From an uncultured Actinomycetes bacterium (GTDB lineage: Bacteria; Actinomycetota; UBA4738; HRBIN12), in NCBI GenBank assembly GCA_963749895.1, contig CAVVOG010000002.1, positions 94,511 to 158,510 on the forward strand: a stretch of DNA of 64,000 nt, given 5' to 3'. Under the pieces are notes generated by a model. It was not told the origin of the DNA. It saw only the letters and a program-made list of their open reading frames with translations, and made no database searches. The position numbers and the translations under genes were made by a program. Shown in pieces: positions 841 to 60,645 of this stretch; position 1 is the first letter of the stretch; each line of letters begins with the position of its first letter.

Positions 841-1794
841 ATGGCAACCCCGACGAAGGTCCCCGAGGTCGAGCCGACCCCGACCCGGCCGAGCGCCCCG
901 ACCGTGGTGCTCCCCGACTCGGCCGTGATCCGCACGATCCCGCCCGAACGCACCCCGCCGGCCCCCGCGGCCACCACCCGACGGCTGTGGGCAGCGCTGA
1001 TCGGCCTCGCGATCGCGGTGCTCGTGGCGATCGGCGTCATCGTGTGGCAGCAGAGCCGCGTCGACGACGCCGAGGCAGCGCTCCGCGCCGCCGACACCGA
1101 CCGCGGCGTGGCGACGATCCAGGCGCAGCAGCTCCAGACCGACCTCGCGCTGGCCGAGGCCGAGCTCGCGCAGGCCCAGACCGAGGTCCAAGGGCTCGAG
1201 CGCCGGGTCGAGCGACTCGAGGCGAAGGTCGCCGGGACGACCCAGGACAACGAGCAGATGACCTCGGAGCTCGACGCCGCACAGGCCGATCTCCGCCAGG
1301 CCGAGAACCAGCTCGCTCGCGCCCAGGCGCGAGAGGCCGAAGCGAGCGCAGCCGCGCGGCAGGCACGCACCGAGTTGAACGCGATCGCCGGCGCCCCACT
1401 CGCCGACGGCGAGTGGACCGGGCGGATGTTCATGTTCGGCGGCACCCAGGTCCCGCCGATGCTCGCCTTCGACGAACGCAAGCTGTTCCGGGGGCAGGAC
1501 GCGATCGACGCGATGATCGCCGACGGCGTCCCGCGGGCGACCGCCCAGGCGTGCGGGTCCGACTGCGTCTACTGGCGGAACCCGTCGAACGGCTGGCGCA
1601 TCATGGAGGTCTCGCCGTACGCGCTCGTGACGCTGTACACGTTCGGGCCCGACACGACGATGAACCTCTCCGAGTTCACACGAGCCTTCAACGGTGAAGG
1701 ACCCCGCAACGCGAAGATCTCGGCCGCCCCGTATCGGCTCACGATGTCCGGCGGCCAGGTCACCCGGATCGAGGAGGTCCGCGTCGGCTGGTAG
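841..1794 (+). CDS. Single-TM membrane-anchored coiled-coil protein, function unknown
   Basis: Pro-rich N-terminus, TM LWAALIGLAIAVLVAIGVIVW, about 110 aa Q/E/A-rich heptad region, C-terminal globular domain with 2 Cys. Confidence 0.8.
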   Translation: MATPTKVPEVEPTPTRPSAPTVVLPDSAVIRTIPPERTPPAPAATTRRLWAALIGLAIAVLVAIGVIVWQQSRVDDAEAALRAADTDRGVATIQAQQLQTDLALAEAELAQAQTEVQGLERRVERLEAKVAGTTQDNEQMTSELDAAQADLRQAENQLARAQAREAEASAAARQARTELNAIAGAPLADGEWTGRMFMFGGTQVPPMLAFDERKLFRGQDAIDAMIADGVPRATAQACGSDCVYWRNPSNGWRIMEVSPYALVTLYTFGPDTTMNLSEFTRAFNGEGPRNAKISAAPYRLTMSGGQVTRIEEVRVGW

Positions 1795-1799
1795 CCGGA

Positions 1800-3074
1800 T
1801 CAGGGCGTCGATGCGGCGACGACCCGGCCGGCAACCGTGCAGCCCTCGCCGGGCGACGACCGGATCACGAGCGAGCCGCCCAGGGCTTCGACGCGCTCCT
1901 GGAGGCTCCGCAGGCCGACGCCCCGCCGGACCGCGTCCGGGTCGAAGCCCTCGCCGTCGTCGGTGACGCTGAAGGCGAGCTCCCCGCCGGCCCGTCGCAG
2001 CGAGACCACGACCGAGCGAGCATGCGCATGCTTCACGGCGTTCTGCACCGCCTCGAGACAGCAGAAGTACACGGCGGTCTCGACGTGCAGCGGGAACCTC
2101 CCGATCCCCGAGGCACGCACCTCGACCGGCACCGGGGCCTTCCCCGCCCGCTGCTCGAGCGCCGGCCCGAGACCCTCGTCGGCCAGGACAGGCGGACAGG
2201 TCGCGCGCGTGAGCTCGCGCAGCCCTTCGAGGGTCTCCAGCGCCTCGGCCTGGAGCGTCTCCAGCAGTGTCACCGCGCGCGCGGGATCGGACCCGACGAG
2301 CCCCTTCGCGAGTCCGAGCTTCACCGAGAGGGCCACGAGCTGCTGCTGCGCGCCGTCGTGAAGGTTCCGCTCGATCCTGCGACGCTCGTGCTCGGCGGCG
2401 TCGATCAACCTCCGCCGCCCTTCGCGACCCTCCCGGTCGAGTCGCTCCCGGCGCCGCGCGAGGAGCGCCGCCGAGCCGACCGCCACGAGGCAGAAGGCGA
2501 TCTGCCCGGAACCAGAGAAGGCAGCGTACGGCGTGTCCGAACGGATCTCGGCGATCACGACGACGGCGAGCCACCCGAGCGCGACGACCGCGGCGGCCAG
2601 ATGGGTGGCGACGACGGTCGACAGCGCCAAGGTGGCGAGGGTGAGGCCGAGCGACGGGAGGATCCACGCGACGACGGGCAGGTCGGCCGCCGGGAGGAGG
2701 ACGACCACGGCACCCATCGCGAGGGCGGCGGTCCCGAGGACCGCGCTCGCCCGGAGCAGGAGGAGACGGACGTTCGGCATCGGCGTCGAGCGCGTGAGCT
2801 CGTCCATCGGATCGGCCCACGGCCCGTAGGCGAGGGCGACCCCGCCGATCGGAAGCAGCGGGGCCACGATCAGGAGGGTGAGCGTCGCCCGGGGACCCAC
2901 CGCGGCGGCGCCGACCGAGAACGCGACCGCGGCCAGGGCCGACCCGATCCACGACCACCGGTAGCTCGGCGCGGCCGCGAGGACGCGCGCGACGTGGTCG
3001 GGAACCCGGACGCGGGTGAGCGCCCTCTCGATCGCCGATCCCGGCGCGGCGCCGGAGACCGCGGCCTCGCTCAC
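1800..3074 (-). CDS. HisKA_3-type sensor histidine kinase with an anti-sigma-like multi-TM N-terminal domain
   Basis: ERRRIERNLHDGAQQQL H-box, EAVQNAVKHA N-box, DDGEGF and GVGL G-boxes; GTG start overlaps upstream TGA. Confidence 0.9.
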   Translation of the reverse strand: MSEAAVSGAAPGSAIERALTRVRVPDHVARVLAAAPSYRWSWIGSALAAVAFSVGAAAVGPRATLTLLIVAPLLPIGGVALAYGPWADPMDELTRSTPMPNVRLLLLRASAVLGTAALAMGAVVVLLPAADLPVVAWILPSLGLTLATLALSTVVATHLAAAVVALGWLAVVVIAEIRSDTPYAAFSGSGQIAFCLVAVGSAALLARRRERLDREGREGRRRLIDAAEHERRRIERNLHDGAQQQLVALSVKLGLAKGLVGSDPARAVTLLETLQAEALETLEGLRELTRATCPPVLADEGLGPALEQRAGKAPVPVEVRASGIGRFPLHVETAVYFCCLEAVQNAVKHAHARSVVVSLRRAGGELAFSVTDDGEGFDPDAVRRGVGLRSLQERVEALGGSLVIRSSPGEGCTVAGRVVAASTP

Positions 3075-9919: not shown

Positions 9920-11271
9920 TCAGGCGAGCGAGGGCCAATCCGTCCCGTGCGCCTCCACGAATCGATCGAGCAGCGAGCGGGCCAGCTCCTCTGAGCCGAC
10001 GAGGGGGTGGGTCGCGAGCGCTTCACGTGCGGCGGCGAGCGATCCGGTGACCGCCGCCTCCACCGTGAGCCGCTCGTAGCTCTTCACCCGATCGAGCAGC
10101 CGCTCCGCGTGCACCGGGAGGTCGCCCTGCGGCAGGGCCTCCGCGCCATCGCGGGAGGCGATCGAGCTCACCTCGACGACGTCCGCGTCGTGGAGGGTCG
10201 AGATCGCACCACGATTCACGGTGTCCAAGATCAGCCTGGCCGGCCGCCCATGGACCGCGGCCGTGATCACGGCGGCGGCCACGCCTTGATAGCCCTCGTC
10301 GTCGAGGACGTCCGCGTGGCCGCCGCGACCCTCACCCGTCTCGCGGGCGAAGTAGGTCGCGCCACGTTCGCCGACGGCCGCTTCCCAGGCCGAGGCCGCC
10401 CCGGCCAGGTCGCCCGCCTCGACCCGCTCGCGCAAGCGTCGACCACGAGGTGTCGTGCAGCTCGAGCAGCTGCCGCGCCCGCGAGACGCCGGAGCTGAGG
10501 ATGTTCGCCGTCGCACGCGCGGGATCGTCGTAGAAGACCATGTACTCGTTCGGGAGCATCCCGACGCGCCGCACCTGCTCCGGGTCGAACGGCCGCCAGT
10601 GGGGGTCGGCCTGCTGGAGGTCCTCGAACCGGTCGAGCAGCTCGGGCAGCCGGTCGGCGCCGTCGACCACGACGCGATGGATCCATCCGCAGTGGTTCAG
10701 CCCCGCGTAGTCGACCTGGACCTCTTCGGCCGGTCGACCCAGGAACGCCGCGATGCTCCTGTGCATCGCCGCAGGCGTGTCGCACACGCCCACGACCCGC
10801 ACCGAGGTCTGGTCGCACGACGGCCTGCGCCACGATCCCGACGGGGTTCGTGAAGCAGATCAAGAGCGCGTCGGGAGCGACCTCCTCGATCAGCCGGGCA
10901 TGGGCGAGCATCGACGGGATCGTCCGCATCGCCATCGCGAACCCGCCGGGGCCGGTCGTCTCCTGACCGAGCACACCGAGGGCGAGCGGGACCTCCTCGT
11001 CGACGACGCGTCCGGCCTCCTGGGCGGGCCGGATCGCCGAGTAGACGAAGGACGCCCCCGCGATCGCGGAGCGAGCATCGGGGTCGGCGCGCACCGTGAA
11101 GGGGGCTCCCCACGTGGCGCTCAGGTGGGCGCCGAGCGCCCCCATCACCTCGAGGCGGTCGGGGTCGACGTCGTGCAGCACGACCTCGGTCAGCCCCAGG
11201 TCACGACGCCGGCTCAGCCCGTTCAGCACGAACGGGGTGCGTATCCCCGCGCCCAGCAGGGTCAACCTCAC
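9920..11271 (-). CDS. Family 4 glycosyl hydrolase (6-phospho-beta-glucosidase-like), with apparent +1 frameshifts near 10818 and 10434
   Basis: LGQETTGPGG, FTNPVG, GVCDTP, GLNH, LPNEY and ALATHPLV motifs spread over three frames. Confidence 0.85.
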
Positions 11272-12455
11272 GTGTCGAGGACCTCGATCCGGGCCGTGGA
11301 CGGCGCGCGCTCGGCCTGGAGCCGACCGCCGACCCGCTCGGCCTCGCGCATCAGACGCAGGACGTTGCGCCCTGCGATCTTCGTCAGCTCCTCGTCGGAG
11401 TACCCGCGCGCGGCGAGCTCGTCGAACAGCGCCGGATAGCGCGCGACGTCCTCGAGCCCCTCGGGCATCGACGGCGTCCCGTCGAAGTCGCTCCCGATCC
11501 CCACGGCATCGATCCCGGCGACCTCGCGGACGTGGTCGACGTGGTCGGCGACGTCGCCGATCGTGGCGGCGACGTCGCCCTGCGCGCCGAACCAGGCGTC
11601 GAGCGCTTCGCGGACCTTCGCTGGATCGTCGGGGTACTCCGCACGCAGCCGGTCGGCCTCCGCCCAGGCCGCGCGGTTCGCCACGGCGCCCTCGCGGGCG
11701 ACGAACGTCGGAACGAACGCCACCATCACGACGCCACCGGTCCGCCCGACGAGTTCGAGCACGTCGTCGGGGACGTTGCGGGTGACGTCGCACCGCGCAC
11801 GCGCCGAGGAGTGCGAGAAGACGACGGGCGCCTCGGAGACCTCGATCGCCTGGCGCATCACGTCGTCGCTGACGTGGCTGCAATCGACCAGCACCCCGCA
11901 CCGGTTCAGCTCCCGGACGACCTCTTCCCCGAACCGCGTCAGTCCGCCGTTGGGACGCCGGCCGGTGGCCGAATCCGCCCACGGCGTGTCGTCGTTGTGC
12001 GTCAGGGTGAGGTAGCCGGCGCCGAGCGCCGCGAGCGTCCGCAGGGTCCCGAGCGACGACCCGATGCAATGGCCGCCCTCCACCCCGATCGTCGACGCGA
12101 CCCGTCCCGACGCCGCCACCGCCTCGACCTCGTCGGCCGTGTGGGCGAGCGCCATCCGGTCGGGGTTCGCGGCGACGAGTCGCCGGACCGAGTCGATCTG
12201 TTCGAGGGTCTGCGTCACCGCCACCCCCTCGTCCAGATCCGACGGCACGTAGACCGACCAGAACTGCCCTCGGAGACCGCCCGCCTCGGCACGGGGCAGA
12301 TCGGTCTGCAGGTCCGGGCAGGGGCCTGCGGGATCGGGGACGGGGTCGCCGTCGACCCAGCGCTCCCGCAGCGCCCACGGCAGGTCGTTGTGGCCGTCGA
12401 TCAGGGGCGCGGAGCGGAGGAGCTCGACGATGCGGGGGCTCGCCTCGGTCATCAC
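11268..12455 (-). CDS. Membrane dipeptidase (peptidase M19)
   Basis: IDGHNDL, LTLTHN, VDCSH, FSHSS, GIGSDFDG. Confidence 0.95.
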   Translation of the reverse strand: MMTEASPRIVELLRSAPLIDGHNDLPWALRERWVDGDPVPDPAGPCPDLQTDLPRAEAGGLRGQFWSVYVPSDLDEGVAVTQTLEQIDSVRRLVAANPDRMALAHTADEVEAVAASGRVASTIGVEGGHCIGSSLGTLRTLAALGAGYLTLTHNDDTPWADSATGRRPNGGLTRFGEEVVRELNRCGVLVDCSHVSDDVMRQAIEVSEAPVVFSHSSARARCDVTRNVPDDVLELVGRTGGVVMVAFVPTFVAREGAVANRAAWAEADRLRAEYPDDPAKVREALDAWFGAQGDVAATIGDVADHVDHVREVAGIDAVGIGSDFDGTPSMPEGLEDVARYPALFDELAARGYSDEELTKIAGRNVLRLMREAERVGGRLQAERAPSTARIEVLDT

Positions 12456-14935: not shown

Positions 14936-16556
14936 CTACGCGAGCGCCTTGCGCTTGCCCTTGTCCCGCAGGATCTCCCGCACGCAGTGGTGGCCGGGCA
15001 GACCCGTCACCCCACCGCCCGCGTGGGTCGCGCTCGACGCCTGGTACAGGCCGCGGATCGGCGTGCGGTAGTCCGCGTACTCGGGTGCCGGTCGCATGTG
15101 GAACAACTGATCGACCGCCAGCTCCCCGTGGAAGATGTTGCCCCCGATCAGGCTCCAGTCGTCCTGCATCTGCTTCGGCCCGATCACCTGCCGGTGGAGC
15201 ACCGAGGACTTGAACCCTGGCGCCACCGTGTCGATCCGGTCGACGAGCCGGTCGGCGTAGGCCTCGAGGTCGTCCTGGTGACCGTCCTCGTCGGCCCAGT
15301 CCGCGGGGACCCACTGGGAGAAGCACGACATCACGTGGATCCCCTCGGGCGCGAGCGTCCGGTCGAACACGGTCGGGAGCGCCGTGTCGCTGAACGGCAG
15401 CGTCGCCGCCTTCCCCGAACGAGCGTCCTGGAACGCGGTCTCGAGGTACTCGAGGTCGTCGAGGACCTGGATCGCACCCCCGTGGATCTGCGGGTCGTAG
15501 TCGGGGTCGGCCGCGAAGGTCGGCAGCTCGGACAGGGCCATGTTCGACCTTCACCGTGCCGCTGCGGGTGCGCCAGTGCTCGATGTCGCGCACGAACGTG
15601 TCCGGGAGCTCGCTCGGCGAGAGGTGCTGGAGGAACCCGATCTTCGGGTGGACCGTCGTGACGACGACCGGCGCCAGCAGCTCCTCGCCGTCGGTGAGCA
15701 CGACCCCGCGCACCCGATCGCCGGCCGTGATCACCCGGTCGACCTTCGCGTTCAACCGGAGCTCGGCGCCGTGGAAGACCGCGGAGTCGGCGCACGCCTT
15801 CCCGACCGCGCCCATCCCGCCCTCGGGGTAGCCCCACGACGAGATCTGGCCGTCGCCGACGTCGCCGACGGAGTGGTGCATCAAGACGTAGGCGGTCCCG
15901 GGCTCCTCGGGCCCGGCCCAGGTACCGATGATGCCGTTCACCGCCAGGAACCCCTTGAGCACCGGCGACTCGAACCACCGGTCGAGCAGGTCCGCCGCGC
16001 TCATCGTGAACAGCCGCGTGATGTCCGCCACCGTCTGCGCATCGATCTCCTTGCGGAGCATCCAGCCCAGCTGGGCGACGTCCTTGATGTCCTTCGGGTC
16101 GCGCGAGCCGACCGTCGGCGGCGTCTGCCACAGCATCGGCGACAGGATCGCGCCGATGCGTCCGATCCACTCCTCGTACGCGAAGTACGTATCGGCGTCA
16201 CGCTTCGAGAACCGCCCGATCGACTCGCGGGTCTTGTCCTCGTCCTCATGGCGGACGATCGACCCGTCGGGCAGCGGCAGGTATCCCAGGCCTTGCGGGA
16301 AGATCTTGTAGCCGAACCGCTCCAGCTGCAGGTCGCGTTGGATCGACGGCGGCATCAGGCTCATCACGTAGCTGAGCGTGGTGACCTTGATGTCAGGCGC
16401 CTCGGGCCACGGAGCCATCGTGTCGGCGGCGCCGCCCGGCTTGTCGCGCGCTTCCAGCACGACCACCCGCGCGCCGAACTTCGCGAGGTACGCCGCGGCG
16501 ATGCAGCCGTTGTGCCCGCCCCCGATCACGACGGCGTCGTAGACGTTCGCTCCCAT
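14936..16556 (-). CDS. Phytoene dehydrogenase-like FAD-dependent oxidoreductase, with apparent +1 frameshift near 15545
   Basis: IGGGHNG FAD motif, GYPEGGMG, GNIFHGEL, THAGGGVTG; an extra G between VKV and NMALSELP. Confidence 0.9.
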
Positions 16557-37585: not shown

Positions 37586-37682
37586 CGGGACTTGACACCC
37601 GTGGGGGGGACGGGAACCCTTCGCGGGTCCGCACCGACGCAGGGGGAGCCGTGTGTCGTTCGCCGAAGGAGGACGCCGCGAC

Positions 37683-38344
37683 ATGGATGACCTCGATTTC
37701 CGCGTTCGGAACCGGACGTACGGGGCGTTCGTCGACCTCGGCCGGGCGCCCACCCCCGAGGAGGTCGGTCGCCTGGCCCGCCTCGGGGTCGACGAGATCC
37801 GGGCGTCATGGCGACGCCTGCGCGACCAGCACGCGCTCGTGCTCGACCCGTCGGCGGACGACAGGATCTGGATGGCGAACCCGTTCTCGGGCGTGCCGAC
37901 CCCCTACCGCGTCCGGGCCGACGACCGGTGGTGGTTCGCGAACTGCGCGTGGGACTCGTTCGGCATCTGCGCGGCGCTCCACGTCGACGGCCGGATCGAG
38001 ACGATCTGTCCGGACTGCGAGGAGCCGATCACGATCGAGGTCCGCGACGGCCGCCCCGACCGCGAGGACCTGGTGTTCCATTGCCTCGTTCCCGCCCGGC
38101 ATTGGTGGGATGACATCGGCGCCACCTGAGGCGCGATGAACCTCTTCCGGTCGGAGGGCACGTGACGCGGTGGCTGGACGGACGTGAGCCCGGCGCGACG
38201 ATCCACGTCACGACCCTGTGTGAGCTGGCGATGCGCTGGTGGGGCGACCGCTTCGATCGCGACTGGCGCCCGCACACCCGGGAACACAACCAGGCGATCC
38301 TCGACGGTCTCGGGCTGACCGGCGACTTCTGGGCGCTCGCCTGA
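37683..38344 (+). CDS. MerB-like organomercurial lyase, probable selenoprotein (UGA at 38127-38129; apparent 1-nt deletion near 38157)
   Basis: ANPFSGVPT, NCAWD, CPDC, WWDDIGAT-UGA-GAMNLFRS; coding continues in a shifted frame HVTRWL..GLTGDFW. Confidence 0.75.
38141..38158 (+). promoter_or_regulatory. Candidate bacterial SECIS hairpin
   Basis: CCUCUUCC-GGUC-GGAGGG; the GGUC loop starts 19 nt after the UGA. Confidence 0.6.
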
Positions 38345-39174: not shown

Positions 39175-39609
39175 ATGCCGATGCCGAGGTGGCTCGCCAA
39201 GGTCAACCGACGCGTCTTCAACCCGATCGAGATCCGCCGGGGGGTCCGGCCGGTCCTGGTCCACGTGGGTCGCTCGTCGGGGACGACGTACCGCACCCCT
39301 CTGGACGCCCACCCCGTCGAGGGTGGGTACGTCTTCATCCCGAACTACGGACCGGGCTCCGACTGGGTCCGCAACATCCTCGCCGCCGGGGACGCGCGGC
39401 TCCGGCTCGAGGATGAGGAAGTGGCACTGACGTCGCCGCGGATGGTGCGCAAGGCGGACGTGTGGTCGGCGCTGCCGGCCGGCACGAAGACCCCGCCGGG
39501 GATCAAGGACGATTCGGAGCTCCTACGGATGGACGTGGTCGAGACCGACGTGCCCGCGACGACGTCGACGGTGCCCCCGGGAAGAATCGAACTTCCGCAC
39601 ACGGTTTAG
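39175..39609 (+). CDS. F420-dependent (Ddn-family) nitroreductase-like oxidoreductase
   Basis: HVGRSSGTTYRTPL and YGPGSDWVRNILAAG; GGAGG RBS. Confidence 0.88.
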   Translation: MPMPRWLAKVNRRVFNPIEIRRGVRPVLVHVGRSSGTTYRTPLDAHPVEGGYVFIPNYGPGSDWVRNILAAGDARLRLEDEEVALTSPRMVRKADVWSALPAGTKTPPGIKDDSELLRMDVVETDVPATTSTVPPGRIELPHTV

Positions 39610-39643
39610 GAAACCGATGCTCTATCCACTGAGCTACGGGGGC
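39572..39643 (-). tRNA. tRNA-Arg(CCT)
   Basis: GCCCCCG acceptor stem, D-arm GCTCAGTGGATAGAGC, anticodon loop TTCCTAA, T-arm GGAAGTTCGATTCTTCC; CCA not encoded. Confidence 0.95.
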
Positions 39644-39867
39644 GGGGGATGCATTCTCGCAGGTGAGAACGCCCGCCTGAAGCCTCTGAGAGGATCGCCC
39701 GAGCTTGATGGGCCACTTGGGGCCACACCCAGGCCGCAGTACCTGAGTGCCTCTCGGAGCGGAAGTACGTCCGGTCGAGATCCGGACGGAGGGTGCTGAC
39801 GAGACTCAAGTATGAAGGCCAGAGGGTCTACTTGAGTCGCCTGTATGATGCTTTCCTACGCATCGAT

Positions 39868-40228
39868 GGCGAGCGTTCAGCGGCGGACCCGGACCACGAG
39901 GAAGGGATCGAAGTACGTCTGCTATCGGGTCCGGTACCGAGGTACTGACGGGCGGGAGCGATCGAAGAGCTTCGCCCAGCGCCGAGATGCGGTGAAGTTC
40001 GCGTCATCCGTCGAGACGGATCTCATGAGGGGTCAGTGGACCGATCCCGCTCTCGCAAGGATCCCCTTCGGGACGTGGGCTTCCGACTGGCTCGCTGCGA
40101 AGCGGCCTTCTCTGAAGCCGAAGACCTATTCGAGCTACGAGAGCCTTCTGCGTGTCCAGATCGCCCCCTATCTCGCAGCACGACCCATCGGGGCTCGATG
40201 GGAAGCCTGCTGTTGGACCGCCCCTTGA
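39868..40228 (+). pseudogene. Truncated tyrosine integrase (arm-binding and SAM-like domains only)
   Basis: YRVRYRGTDGRERSKSF..DLMRGQWTDP..KPKTYSSYESLLRVQIAPYL; no catalytic domain; next to a tRNA. Confidence 0.85.
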
Positions 40229-46286: not shown

Positions 46287-48481
46287 GTGTCCACGCCGCG
46301 ACGAACCGAAGGATGGCCGGTCACGATCGCCGCAGGGATCATCGTCGGCGCCGTCGAGACCGTGCTCGCCGTGGCGTTCGCCGCCTTCGTGTTCGGGGGG
46401 CTGCTATCCCAGAGCCTGCCCGACGGCATCGGCCTGTACCTTGCCGCCGCCGTCTTGACCCTCGCGACGCTCGCGTGGCGGGCAGGCAGGCGCGGCGTCG
46501 TCGGGAGCGTGCAGGACGCGGCGGCGGCCGTCCTCGCGGTCGCGGCGGCGGCGGCCGCCGCGAAGGCCACGCAGCTCCAGCAGGTCGCGACGCTCGCCGG
46601 ACTGGAGGATTACGAGGGACCAGACGTCTTCCTCACGGTGATCGCGGCCACGCTGGTCGTCACGGTCCTGTGCGGCGTGGTCTTCCTGGTGCTCGGGTGG
46701 CGCCGGTGGGGGAACCTGATCCGGTTCGTTCCCTATCCGGTCGTCGGTGGGTTCCTGGCCGGCACGGGCTGGCTCCTCCTCACGGGGGGATCTACGTCGC
46801 GTCGGGCGTCCAGGTCGACCTCGACAGGTTCGGCGACCTGGCGCGCCCGTACACCTCGGCGCGCTGGGTCCCCGCCTTCGCCTTCGGCGTGATCCTGCTG
46901 CTCGCGGTCCGGATCGTCCGGAAGCCGCTGGTGATCCCGCTGACGATCGGCCTCGGGCTGGTGGGGTTCGTCGCCGTGGCACTCGCCACCGGTTCGGGCC
47001 TGGACGAAGCCCGTGACGGGGGGTGGTTGCTCGGGCCGTTCGAGACCACCAGGCTGTGGCAGCCTTGGACCCTGCGCGCGGCCACGGGCGCGGACTGGTC
47101 GGCCGTGATCGGATCGTGGCCGACGATCGCCACCGCCGTGTTCGTGGCCAGTCTGGCCCTTCTGTTCAACGTCGGAGGGACCGAGCTCGTCCTGGACCGG
47201 GACCTCGACTCGAACGCGGAACTGCGCGACGCGGGCGTGTTGAACGTCGTGTCGGGAGCGCTCGGCGGGATCCCCGGGTATCACGCGCTCAGCCTCACCG
47301 CCCTCGCGGCCCGGATGAACGTCGACGCGCGCCGTGCGGGCTTGATCGCCGCGCTCGTTCCCCTGGCGGCCGTCGTGGCAGGCGCCTCGGTCGTCGAGCT
47401 GATCCCGCGGGCGATCGTGAGCGGTGTGCTCGTGTTCCTGGGGCTCGGCTTCATCGTCGAGTGGGTGTGGGACAAGCGCAGGACCCTCCCACGGCTCGAG
47501 TACCTGGTGGTCCTCGTGATCCTCGGGGTCGTCATCGTCCAGGGGTACCTGCCCGGCATCGCGGTCGGCTTGGTGCTCGCCGCCGTGCTGTTCGCGTTCA
47601 GCTACGGGCGGGTCGACCTGGTCCGCGAGGTCCCGTTCGGTGACACGTACCGGAGCAGCGTCGACCGGCCGGGCACCGAGCGCGCCGCGCTCCGCGCGGT
47701 GCGTGACCGCGTCTCGATCCTGCGTATCAGCGGGTTCGTGTTCTTCGGCTCGACCGCACGCCTCCTCGAGCGGATACGGGCCGGGACCGCGTCGTCCCCA
47801 CCACCGCGGATCCTGGTGATCGACCTCACGCGCGTGACCGGCATCGACTCGTCTGCCGTCGCGGCGTTCGCCAAGGCGATGCGCCTGATCCGTGCGCGTG
47901 GATCGGAGATGATCGTCACGGGCGCGTCCGAGCCGGTGCGCGCCCAGCTCGAGCAGGGCGGGGTGACCGAGCGGGATCGGATCGTCCGGTTCGAGCTCGA
48001 CCTCGATCGAGGCCTCGAGCGATGCGAGGAACTGCTCCTCGAGGAGCAGCCTGCTCCCGACGAAGACCTGTCACGAGGCGCCGTCGGGCCCCCCGCCGGC
48101 CTCGCCCCGTACATGGAGCGGGTCGCGGTGGACGAGGGAGCGGCCGTGCTGCGCCAGGACGAACCGCCCGGCGACGTCTACGTCTTGATGGAGGGTCGGC
48201 TGGCGGTCGAGACCGTCACCCCGGAGGGCAAGCGCGTGCGCCTCAAGATCTTGCGCCCGGGGGTCGTCGTCGGTGAGGTCGCGCTCTACACCGGTGCGCC
48301 TCGCATCGCCGACGTCGTGGCCGACACGCCCTGCGTGCTCCTGCGATGTCCTGGCGAGCAGATCGCGCGGATCGAGGCCGAGGACCCCGTGGTCGCGATC
48401 GCCCTGCATCGCTGGTTCGCGCAGACGCTCGCGGGGCGGCTCAGCGAGACGATGGGCTCGTTCGACGTGCTGCTCGACTGA
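46287..48481 (+). CDS. SulP-STAS-cNMP-binding anion transporter (copy 2), with apparent -1 frameshift in a G run near 46788
   Basis: RFVPYPVVGGFLAG in one frame and the remainder in another; collinear with copy 1. Confidence 0.85.
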
Positions 48482-59244: not shown

Positions 59245-60645
59245 TCACTCCTCGGCGGTGCGAGCCTCGATGATCCGGACCAGTTCGCGGTCGACGTCCT
59301 CGGGCAGGGCAACGGGTTCGTGCTCGGCCCGGATCCGCCGCACCTGCTCCCGTGCGAGCTCCCGCGGGTCGGGTGGGAATCCGAGATCCTCGACGGAGGG
59401 CACCGTCAGGTCGTCGAGCGCCTCGGGTCCTGCCGGACCGTCGATCGGGGGCAGGCCCTCGCACGCGTCGCAGATCGCCCCGAACAGCTCGGCGTCGAGG
59501 ACCACGTTCACGTCGTCGTACACCGAGGCGCCGTGGAGCGTGCCGGTCCCCGTGATCATCTCGGCCCGACCGGCCGCCGCGACCGCCATCAAGGAGACCG
59601 CGTGCTGGACGCCGGCCTGCCAGTCCTGCGTCTTCGCGCCCGTGTCGAGCGACAAGATGTTGATCGGCACCCGGTACCGGTGGGCGAGCTGGGCGAACGC
59701 GAGCTTCAACAGCGTGTCCTCCGGCCCCCAGTCCTGCCGGTAGCTGCCGGCGCGCAGATCCATGAACGTCGGGTACGGCCCGCAGAACGTGACCGCGCCC
59801 GGGACGAGCGCTTCCACGATCGTCATCCCGCCGACCATCTCCGCGTTCATCGACACGAGGGTCCCGGCCAGGGTCGACGGCGCCGTCGCGCACGGGATCC
59901 CCATCGAGATGAACCCCGACGGGAGCCCCCCACGCGCGAACTCGATCGCGGCCTCGATCGGCCCCTCGTCGTACATCAGCGGGCTGATGCAGCACTGGTA
60001 GGTGGACACGATCGGGCGCCGTCGCAGCTCGAGGTCGCCGCCCGCTACGACGCGGGCCATCTCCAGGACGGCCTGCGCGTCACGACGGCTGTAGGTCTCG
60101 TTGTGCTGGGCGTGCTTCGTCGAGTGCCCCAACATCGCGCGAGTGATGTGGACCGCCTGCGTGTGCGGCGGGACGTCGGCGGGCGCGACCGTCGGCCACA
60201 GGTAGCCCACCTCCGGCACGGCGTCGACGACCCGTGTCGTGTCGATCAGGTCCTGGAGCGTCGAGGCGCGACGTCGCCCCGTCTCGGGGTCGACGATCAA
60301 CGCGGCGGTCCCGTCGCCGGAGAGCCAGCCCGCGCTCCCGTCGACCGGCAGGTCCAGGTCGGGGTCGCGGGCGGCCATCAGGAACGACGGCGGCACGAGC
60401 GCCATGCACTCCTCGACCATCGCCGGAGCGAACCGCACCCGCATCTCGGCCTCGTCGACCCGCGCGCCCGCACCGGCGAGCTCTGCACGGATCGCGGCGG
60501 AACGGACCTGGAGGCCCACCTCGTCGAGGACCCGCAGGGTCGCCTGATGGACCCGCTCGACCTGATCCTCGGTGAGGACCTCGATCGTCCACGGGCCACG
60601 GAGCCCACGGATCGTCCGAGGCACGACGTCGGTCGGCGCACTCAT
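59245..60645 (-). CDS. Trimethylamine methyltransferase (MttB superfamily, non-pyrrolysine)
   Basis: VHQATLRVLDEVG, ISPL, ATAPSTLAGTLV, DWQAG; no in-frame TAG. Confidence 0.88.
   Translation of the reverse strand: MSAPTDVVPRTIRGLRGPWTIEVLTEDQVERVHQATLRVLDEVGLQVRSAAIRAELAGAGARVDEAEMRVRFAPAMVEECMALVPPSFLMAARDPDLDLPVDGSAGWLSGDGTAALIVDPETGRRRASTLQDLIDTTRVVDAVPEVGYLWPTVAPADVPPHTQAVHITRAMLGHSTKHAQHNETYSRRDAQAVLEMARVVAGGDLELRRRPIVSTYQCCISPLMYDEGPIEAAIEFARGGLPSGFISMGIPCATAPSTLAGTLVSMNAEMVGGMTIVEALVPGAVTFCGPYPTFMDLRAGSYRQDWGPEDTLLKLAFAQLAHRYRVPINILSLDTGAKTQDWQAGVQHAVSLMAVAAAGRAEMITGTGTLHGASVYDDVNVVLDAELFGAICDACEGLPPIDGPAGPEALDDLTVPSVEDLGFPPDPRELAREQVRRIRAEHEPVALPEDVDRELVRIIEARTAEE

Follow-up and report, generated by a model that had tools for sequence, protein, structure and literature searches.

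The MerB-like gene at positions 37683-38344 of the 64-kb window (the whole stretch of DNA that was analysed; G+C content, 70.8%) is very probably a single gene of about 220 codons, encoding a MerB-type organometal lyase with selenocysteine (Sec) as its third catalytic residue. The open reading frame (ORF) from ATG 37683, a start that agrees with the N-termini of homologs (M-D-[DE]-x-D-L), closes with ...HWWDDIGAT and is directly followed by TGA at 38127-38129. Past this TGA the same frame reads GGC GCG ATG AAC CTC TTC CGG TCG GAG and continues as G-A-M-N-L-F-R-S-E-G-T up to a second TGA at 38163-38165. The C-terminal 61 codons (Table 1) matched the read-through part of homologs in 40 loci by tblastn, with 73% identity in the search of the source genome itself. 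Both observations with which the preliminary description had begun, an ORF that stops at WWDDIGAT with its frame continuing through the TGA and coding that resumes after a 1-nt gap (HVTRWL..FWALA; ORF 38162-38344), were confirmed in the sequence.

Table 1. Coordinates and basis of the features of the lyase gene (positions of the window)
Feature	Position	Strand	Basis
Shine-Dalgarno-like AGGAGG	37667..37672	+	10 nt before ATG; read in sequence
N-terminal 148 codons: winged-helix region and first two thirds of MerB domain, with Cys and Asp of N-C-A-W-D	37683..38126	+	PF03243, 60.7 bits
In-frame TGA, probable Sec codon, equivalent to MerB Cys159	38127..38129	+	Column conservation, MerB alignment
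Read-through codons G-A-M-N-L-F-R-S-E and first base of next codon	38130..38157	+	In-frame reading
SECIS hairpin: 5' arm 38142-38148, loop GGUC 38149-38152, 3' arm 38153-38159 (shortened by the missing base)	38142..38159	+	RNAalifold consensus, pair counts
Single missing base (A in homologs), frame broken	38157..38158	+	Homolog comparison
C-terminal 61 codons (H-VTRWLDG...DFWALA), shifted frame, last third of MerB domain	38159..38341	+	ORF 38162-38344
True stop TGA of lyase gene	38342..38344	+	ORF reading

UGA codon and read-through in homologs

A protein search with the 148-aa part gave 4427 homolog clusters (90% identity) at E <= 0.001 among 4504 candidates. Among the matches listed (120 of 4427), all 120 ended at the UGA column, after ...W-W-D-D-I-x-x-T (119 recognised by pattern and 1 by eye). 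The DNA around the gene was fetched for 73 species-level genome loci, and the codon at the Sec column was TGA in 70 of these and TAG in 1 (L014); the remaining two were unreadable at this column, one being frame-shifted just upstream (L046) and the other cut by a contig end (L042). A Cys codon was found at this column in 0 of the 73 homologous loci. Terminal stops of the homolog genes were mixed (TGA in 45, TAG in 18, and TAA in 5 of 68 loci) while the internal TGA was near-exclusive, so the internal TGA does not merely mirror a stop-codon preference. Beyond it, a read-through of 63 to 91 aa was present in 67 of the 68 complete loci. Homologs had been proposed as a check on the identity of this codon and on conservation downstream of it, and on both counts (TGA in 70/73 loci, conserved read-through in 67/68 complete loci) they support the earlier proposal that a UGA at the catalytic Cys position encodes Sec.

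The same arrangement was found in the window's order and in metagenomes. From 32 genomes of the order, profile searches recovered 33 matches that were full-length and in a single frame, and every one of these had exactly 1 in-frame TGA (4 of the 33 were in unpublished genomes); the profile search was used in place of a DNA-level search of 40 relatives, which had given mostly short chance matches. All 12 metagenome contigs that shared the 31 bases from the TGA onward had TGA at the Sec column followed by read-through. Homologs had the consensus U-[GS]-[TA]-M-N-L-F-R-S-E-E-H around Sec. When 46 full-length read-through proteins were aligned, the Sec column was flanked on both sides by residues without any variation (C87 and W89 before; R155, G210, L211, and W216 after), while D90 and the motif P-A-R-H-W-W-D-D-I were nearly invariant. 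Full-length Cys forms were sought with the C-terminal 71 aa, which returned 9 proteins; among the 6 examined, which were frame-shifted, started at an internal Met, or were chimeric, there was no clean Cys form. By record title, carriers belonged to Gaiellales, Acidimicrobiia, Solirubrobacterales, Chloroflexota, Dormiibacterota, and Acidobacteriota. From these data we infer that Sec is inserted at the UGA in this MerB-like clade, named T-U here after the residues at the position.

The locus with TAG at the Sec column belongs to Blastococcus jejuensis JCM 15614 (L014:3442-3444). Its hairpin and a 71-aa read-through are intact and its genome has a tRNA-Sec (66.8 bits); the TAG may reflect a point-mutated pseudogene or a base-call error.

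MerB domain and active site

Pfam family PF03243 matched the 148-codon part with 60.7 bits, covering profile positions 1-80 of 126, and the protein with read-through with 100.5 bits, covering positions 1-124 of 126. An AlphaFold2 model of a full-length homolog, built on the alignment of the 46 read-through proteins, formed one compact domain (mean pLDDT, 97; pTM, 0.92), to which the closest solved structures in Foldseek were MerB2 (5c17; TM, 0.70-0.74) and E. coli MerB (3f2f, 3f0o, and others). Alignment of the family profile to PDB sequences placed N-C-x-W-D on MerB Cys96/Asp99 and the Sec column on Cys159, where the aligned stretches were F-C-S-H-V-H-F-F-A-S (an entry with C160S) and T-C-K-Q-I-H-Y-F-S-S (MerB2). 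At the positions of the MerB triad, the clade thus has an invariant Cys (C87), a nearly invariant Asp (D90), and Sec instead of Cys as the third residue. Both assignments made from the sequence beforehand, of NCAWD to Cys96/Asp99 and of T-U-GAMNLFRS to Cys159, were borne out by these alignments, the latter against MerB and MerB2 alike.

Cys-type MerB-like paralogs were seen in a genome of the same genus (L123; G020 C49:4615-5178) and in one of the same family (L126; G077 C16:16038-16577). These share with the T-U clade the MerB-like domain, C-x-x-D, and the pattern ...-C-x-x-M/L-N/L-L-F-x-S-x-x-H/L... over the Sec region, but they have a true Cys codon at the U column, lack an in-frame stop, and are only 28-34% identical. 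Judged by sequence, the Sec clade and these paralogs are a classical Sec/Cys pairing.

SECIS hairpin

Bacterial SECIS elements (bSECIS model) usually have an apical loop with a G in it, placed some 16-37 nt from the UGA. The window has such a hairpin just 3' of the UGA, formed by CTCTTCC (38142-38148), the loop GGTC (38149-38152), and GGAGG.. from 38153, whose loop begins 19 nt beyond the last base of the UGA; the loop GGUC matches that of the E. coli fdhF SECIS. The 51 nt from the TGA aligned without gaps in 69 loci, and RNAalifold predicted a consensus hairpin at columns 16-21/28-33; for the pair counts it was taken as a 7-bp helix (columns 16-22/27-33) with a 4-nt loop. Standard pairs occupied 95.4% of 476 cells, compared with 50-65% when the 3' partners were slid, and both-sided (compensatory) changes were found in 5 of the 7 pairs (31 cells). 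For four of five measures 0 of 500 shuffles attained the observed value; for the fifth, 'further pair types', 23 of 500 did. C-T-T / A-A-G in place of C-T-C / G-A-G is an example of such covariation and combines a Glu-to-Lys change in one arm with a synonymous Leu change in the other. Compared with Rfam at E up to 10, the region 38050-38300 had chance snoRNA-like matches only and matched no SECIS family. The hairpin that had been proposed from the window sequence, with its loop at 19 nt, is thus upheld by covariation among homologs.

Selenocysteine machinery

The source genome (3.1 Mb, 98.4% complete) was searched for the genes of Sec insertion, as the preliminary description had suggested, and these were all found: tRNA-Sec (71.4 bits, with ARAGORN in agreement as SeC(tca)), selA (501 bits), selB (283 bits), and selD (353 bits), the three protein genes each above its cut-off. 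Almost the whole order appears to use Sec, since selA was over its cut-off in 105 of 121 of its genomes (a tally that includes unpublished genomes). With selA nearly universal, its co-occurrence with the lyase gene is uninformative in this order.

The selD gene (L011:1531-1533, G000 contig C3) itself encodes a selenoprotein. Its in-frame TGA falls in G-A-G-U-A-C-K, and about 30 nt downstream there is a candidate hairpin that likewise has GGUC in its loop. The selB gene (G000 contig C1, L010 about 860-2671, minus strand) is split over two frames, the first covering model positions 2-374 (GTPase, domains II-III) and the second covering 442-576 (the typical C-terminal winged-helix end; ...RKYAVPLVEWMDREG...). 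Because selD of the same genome needs Sec insertion, an assembly indel is the apparent cause of this split.

Frame break in the window copy

The 1-nt gap that had been placed at about 38157 was confirmed and lies between 38157 and 38158, one base further to the right. Intact homologs have GAG GAG CAC or GAA GAG CAC where the window has GAG G-G CAC, with one A missing; TGA-bearing homologs read GGAGGAGCAC, GGAAGAGCAC, or a near variant at this site. The missing base sits in the 3' arm of the SECIS, so about 6 pairs are all that the hairpin of the window retains, and in one of these U-A has become U-G. Restoring the one base (GAG GAG CAC), which had been said to repair the frame and to extend the stem, does both according to the homologs.

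Contigs from unrelated metagenomes (Logan) were compared at the same site. Four contigs from two runs stopped aligning at 38155-38157 and none bridged the site; two of the four matched the window at 98.7% identity (4 of 318 bases different) and 99.3% identity (1 of 153 bases different), and the best word share among the listed runs was 0.40. The loose end of two contigs from one run (X7; 98.7% and about 89% identical) continues with AGCAC..., so that the extra A is present there. As the base is present in all intact homologs and in the X7 contigs, the deletion belongs to this assembly or strain alone.

We consider the frame break very likely to be an assembly indel error and not biology, because selB, a GH4 glycosidase, and a SulP gene are frame-split in the same assembly as well; a point against an assembly error is the position of the missing base outside any homopolymer, since sequencing indels more typically fall within one. 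The family-4 glycosyl hydrolase gene (10046-11274, minus strand) extends over three frames, with the N domain, profile positions 1-70 of the C domain, and then positions 112-195, which amounts to two frame breaks in about 1.2 kb. The SulP sulfate-permease / STAS / cNMP-binding gene (46335-48478, plus strand) extends over two frames (profile positions 8-128 and 165-379), with the junction at a run of six G near 46784-46789. Two further sites were seen in the window. The coding signal of an FAD amine-oxidase-like gene (14939-16550, minus strand) is lost at about 15546 and another frame takes over, so this gene is probably broken in frame as well, its downstream piece having no Pfam match; a frame-break candidate at 59275-59740 had no Pfam match either. 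The GC3 heuristic used to find frame breaks missed the merB junction and therefore undercounts breaks. Among homologs, other frame breaks within the lyase gene occur at L045, L046, L047, and L057 and in G056 C16 and G066 C54, mostly in long-contig metagenome-assembled genomes (MAGs).

Genomic context

The neighbours of the gene in the window (UroD/MtaA-like, TetR, glyoxalase-like, and ligase-like) were beside it in 0 of 73 homolog loci. The UroD/MtaA-family gene, which had been taken as a hint that the substrate may not be mercury, therefore says nothing on the substrate, and that part of the preliminary description was not borne out (0/73 loci). Neighbours at homolog loci were purH, aldehyde dehydrogenase, PRTase, and similar genes, and the largest shared cluster in an all-against-all clustering of neighbours (71 loci scanned) comprised 8 loci, with purH; the neighbours shared in this way are housekeeping genes. 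No mer genes lie beside the lyase gene in the window, and the best match to the MerA model in the source genome (315 bits) was below the cut-off of 454, in agreement with the earlier remark that there is no mer operon nearby; a MerB-like mercury pathway would consequently be without its usual partner. The lyase gene appears to encode a stand-alone enzyme.

Downstream of the gene, a tRNA-Arg(CCT) (39570-39643, minus strand) is followed at 39845-40225 (plus strand) by a 127-aa fragment of a phage-type integrase, of which just the SAM-like N-terminal domain is present. The two features likely mark the boundary of a genomic island, about 1.2 kb beyond the end of the lyase gene.

Comparison with SaoL and MerB

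SaoL (NCBIfam NF040728), as described by Haft and Gwadz (bioRxiv 10.1101/2022.07.06.499078), is a MerB-like organometallic lyase selenoprotein that marks a nine-gene SAO locus in anaerobes, and the relevant passages of two reviews (PMC9312934, PMC13188914) list only the C-U SaoL entry as a MerB-like selenoprotein. SaoL resembles the T-U clade in its MerB fold (PF03243), in having Sec at the Cys159-equivalent position with the equivalents of Cys96 and Asp99 kept, in database entries that break off at the UGA, beyond which the domain continues, and in a substrate that is perhaps not mercury. Against NF040728, which has a cut-off of 140, the window protein scored 47.8 bits and a full-length homolog 44.7 bits; SaoL has C-U whereas the window has T-U, and among the matches listed (120 of 4427) 119 ended in T (114 of them in F-T) and 1 in N; and, unlike SaoL, the T-U clade had no conserved neighbourhood in the 71 loci scanned, as judged by neighbour clustering. 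Membership in SaoL was ruled out by the score below cut-off, by T-U instead of C-U, and by the absence of a conserved neighbourhood in these loci. SaoL had been named in the preliminary description as an example of a MerB-like selenoprotein; such a protein is indeed in print, but the gene itself is no SaoL member (45-48 bits versus 140). The T-U clade is a separate clade and much larger than SaoL.

With MerB and MerB2 (EC 4.99.1.2; PDB 3f0p, 3f2f, and 5c17) the clade shares the fold (Foldseek E, 3e-11 to 1e-9; TM, 0.57-0.74), Pfam family PF03243, and the aligned catalytic positions Cys96, Asp99, and 159. It differs from them in that Cys159 is replaced by Sec, in an identity of 17-21% in the structural alignment, in the stretch V-P-A-R-H-W-W-D-D-I just before Sec, which is specific to the T-U clade, and in the absence of a mer operon at the locus. 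Scores were 42.2 bits with the NCBIfam MerB model NF009710 (cut-off, 193) and 40.3 bits with NF033555 (cut-off, 200), and no NCBIfam model attained its cut-off for the T-U clade. One NCBI member (P0039) is named 'organomercurial lyase' at 147 aa. Literature searches on MerB and selenoproteins gave SaoL-related papers only and none on the T-U clade; supplementary tables of selenoproteome studies, outside the scope of these searches, may list it.

Alternative explanations

Three other readings of the window were weighed against that of a Sec-containing lyase interrupted by an assembly indel. In one, the selenoprotein family is real and the window copy is a recent pseudogene, made by a true one-base deletion in the 3' arm of its SECIS. 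The deletion is unique among all homologs seen and lies outside homopolymers; split copies also occur in two other genomes of the order (G056 and G066), and the tRNA-Arg and integrase fragment some 1.2 kb away suggest a variable region. Profile searches of 8 other genomes from the genus did not find the Sec-type gene in any, as would fit gene loss in this lineage. Against this, the C-terminal 61 codons are free of further defects and keep the invariant residues, and frame splits also affect several unrelated genes of the assembly, among them the selB that the Sec-containing selD requires. Near-identical environmental contigs moreover break at this very site, and the extra base is present in those from X7. 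We therefore regard a true pseudogene as unlikely, and an assembly indel in an intact Sec-containing lyase gene remains the preferred reading.

Far less probable still is that the TGA at 38127 is a true stop, with a 147-aa truncated MerB-like protein before it and a separate small protein started at the conserved Met two codons later. Gene callers do annotate the 147-aa form thousands of times, most loci have ATG at columns 10-12 after the TGA, and a few recorded ORFs start at MNLFRSEEH. However, TGA made up 70 of 71 stops at the Sec column versus 45 of 68 terminal stops, loci of the Acidimicrobiia-type clade have ATC or ATT instead of that ATG, and the stop falls on the column of the catalytic Cys159, while the single-chain model folds as one compact MerB domain (pLDDT, 97) and the hairpin at SECIS distance shows covariation. 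Equally hard to credit is a combination of Sec recoding with programmed ribosomal frameshifting at GGAGGG: the break does lie inside a structured, G-rich element, but no homolog needs a frameshift. This reading is already contradicted by homologs that read through in one frame, namely, among complete sequences, 67 of 68 genome loci and all 10 metagenome contigs, and also the 33 matches of the order. A single Sec-containing lyase gene, frame-split in this assembly, thus accounts best for the window.

Proposed function and implications

Under the mechanism that we propose, the UGA at 38127 would be recoded by SelB and tRNA-Sec, guided by the 7-bp hairpin, which carries a GGUC loop and starts 15 nt after the codon. 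By analogy with MerB, for which this mechanism is established, Cys87 and Sec148 would then bind the metal of an organometallic substrate, and Asp90, the Asp of N-C-x-W-D, would protonate the leaving carbon. It is likewise by analogy that we infer the lyase chemistry and the substrate of the T-U clade. Since the gene stands alone, with neither a mer operon nor a SAO locus, methylmercury and other carbon compounds of soft metals or metalloids are all candidate substrates; the family-specific W-W-D-D beside Sec may shape a different pocket.

The data support a second, larger, Sec-only clade of MerB-fold selenoproteins after SaoL, and with it a further instance, apparently an independent one, of Sec at the metal site of MerB. 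Taken together, they tentatively suggest an undescribed Sec-only family with thousands of members, mostly in aerobic soil and sediment bacteria of at least four phyla, that would possibly act as a stand-alone MerB-fold lyase with a Cys/Asp/Sec site and a unique W-W-D-D pocket on an organometal(loid) substrate outside the mer and SAO systems.

For annotation, the source assembly has frequent single-base indels, so its frame breaks are not to be taken as biology, and gene-level frame breaks in such long-contig MAG assemblies should be read with care. Thousands of database entries stop at the Sec codon and are without the last third of the domain and a key catalytic residue (120 of 120 among the matches listed). 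Environmental merB surveys probably count genes of the T-U clade; if the joint reading is true, metagenomic merB counts would include a large, mis-truncated, and functionally different class. Once read-through is recognised, a large clade is added to the prokaryotic selenoproteome, in aerobic soil lineages with few known selenoproteins. The family raises the testable question of carbon-metal bond cleavage without a mer operon, and one candidate activity, should the joint reading hold, would be mer-independent demethylation of methylmercury.
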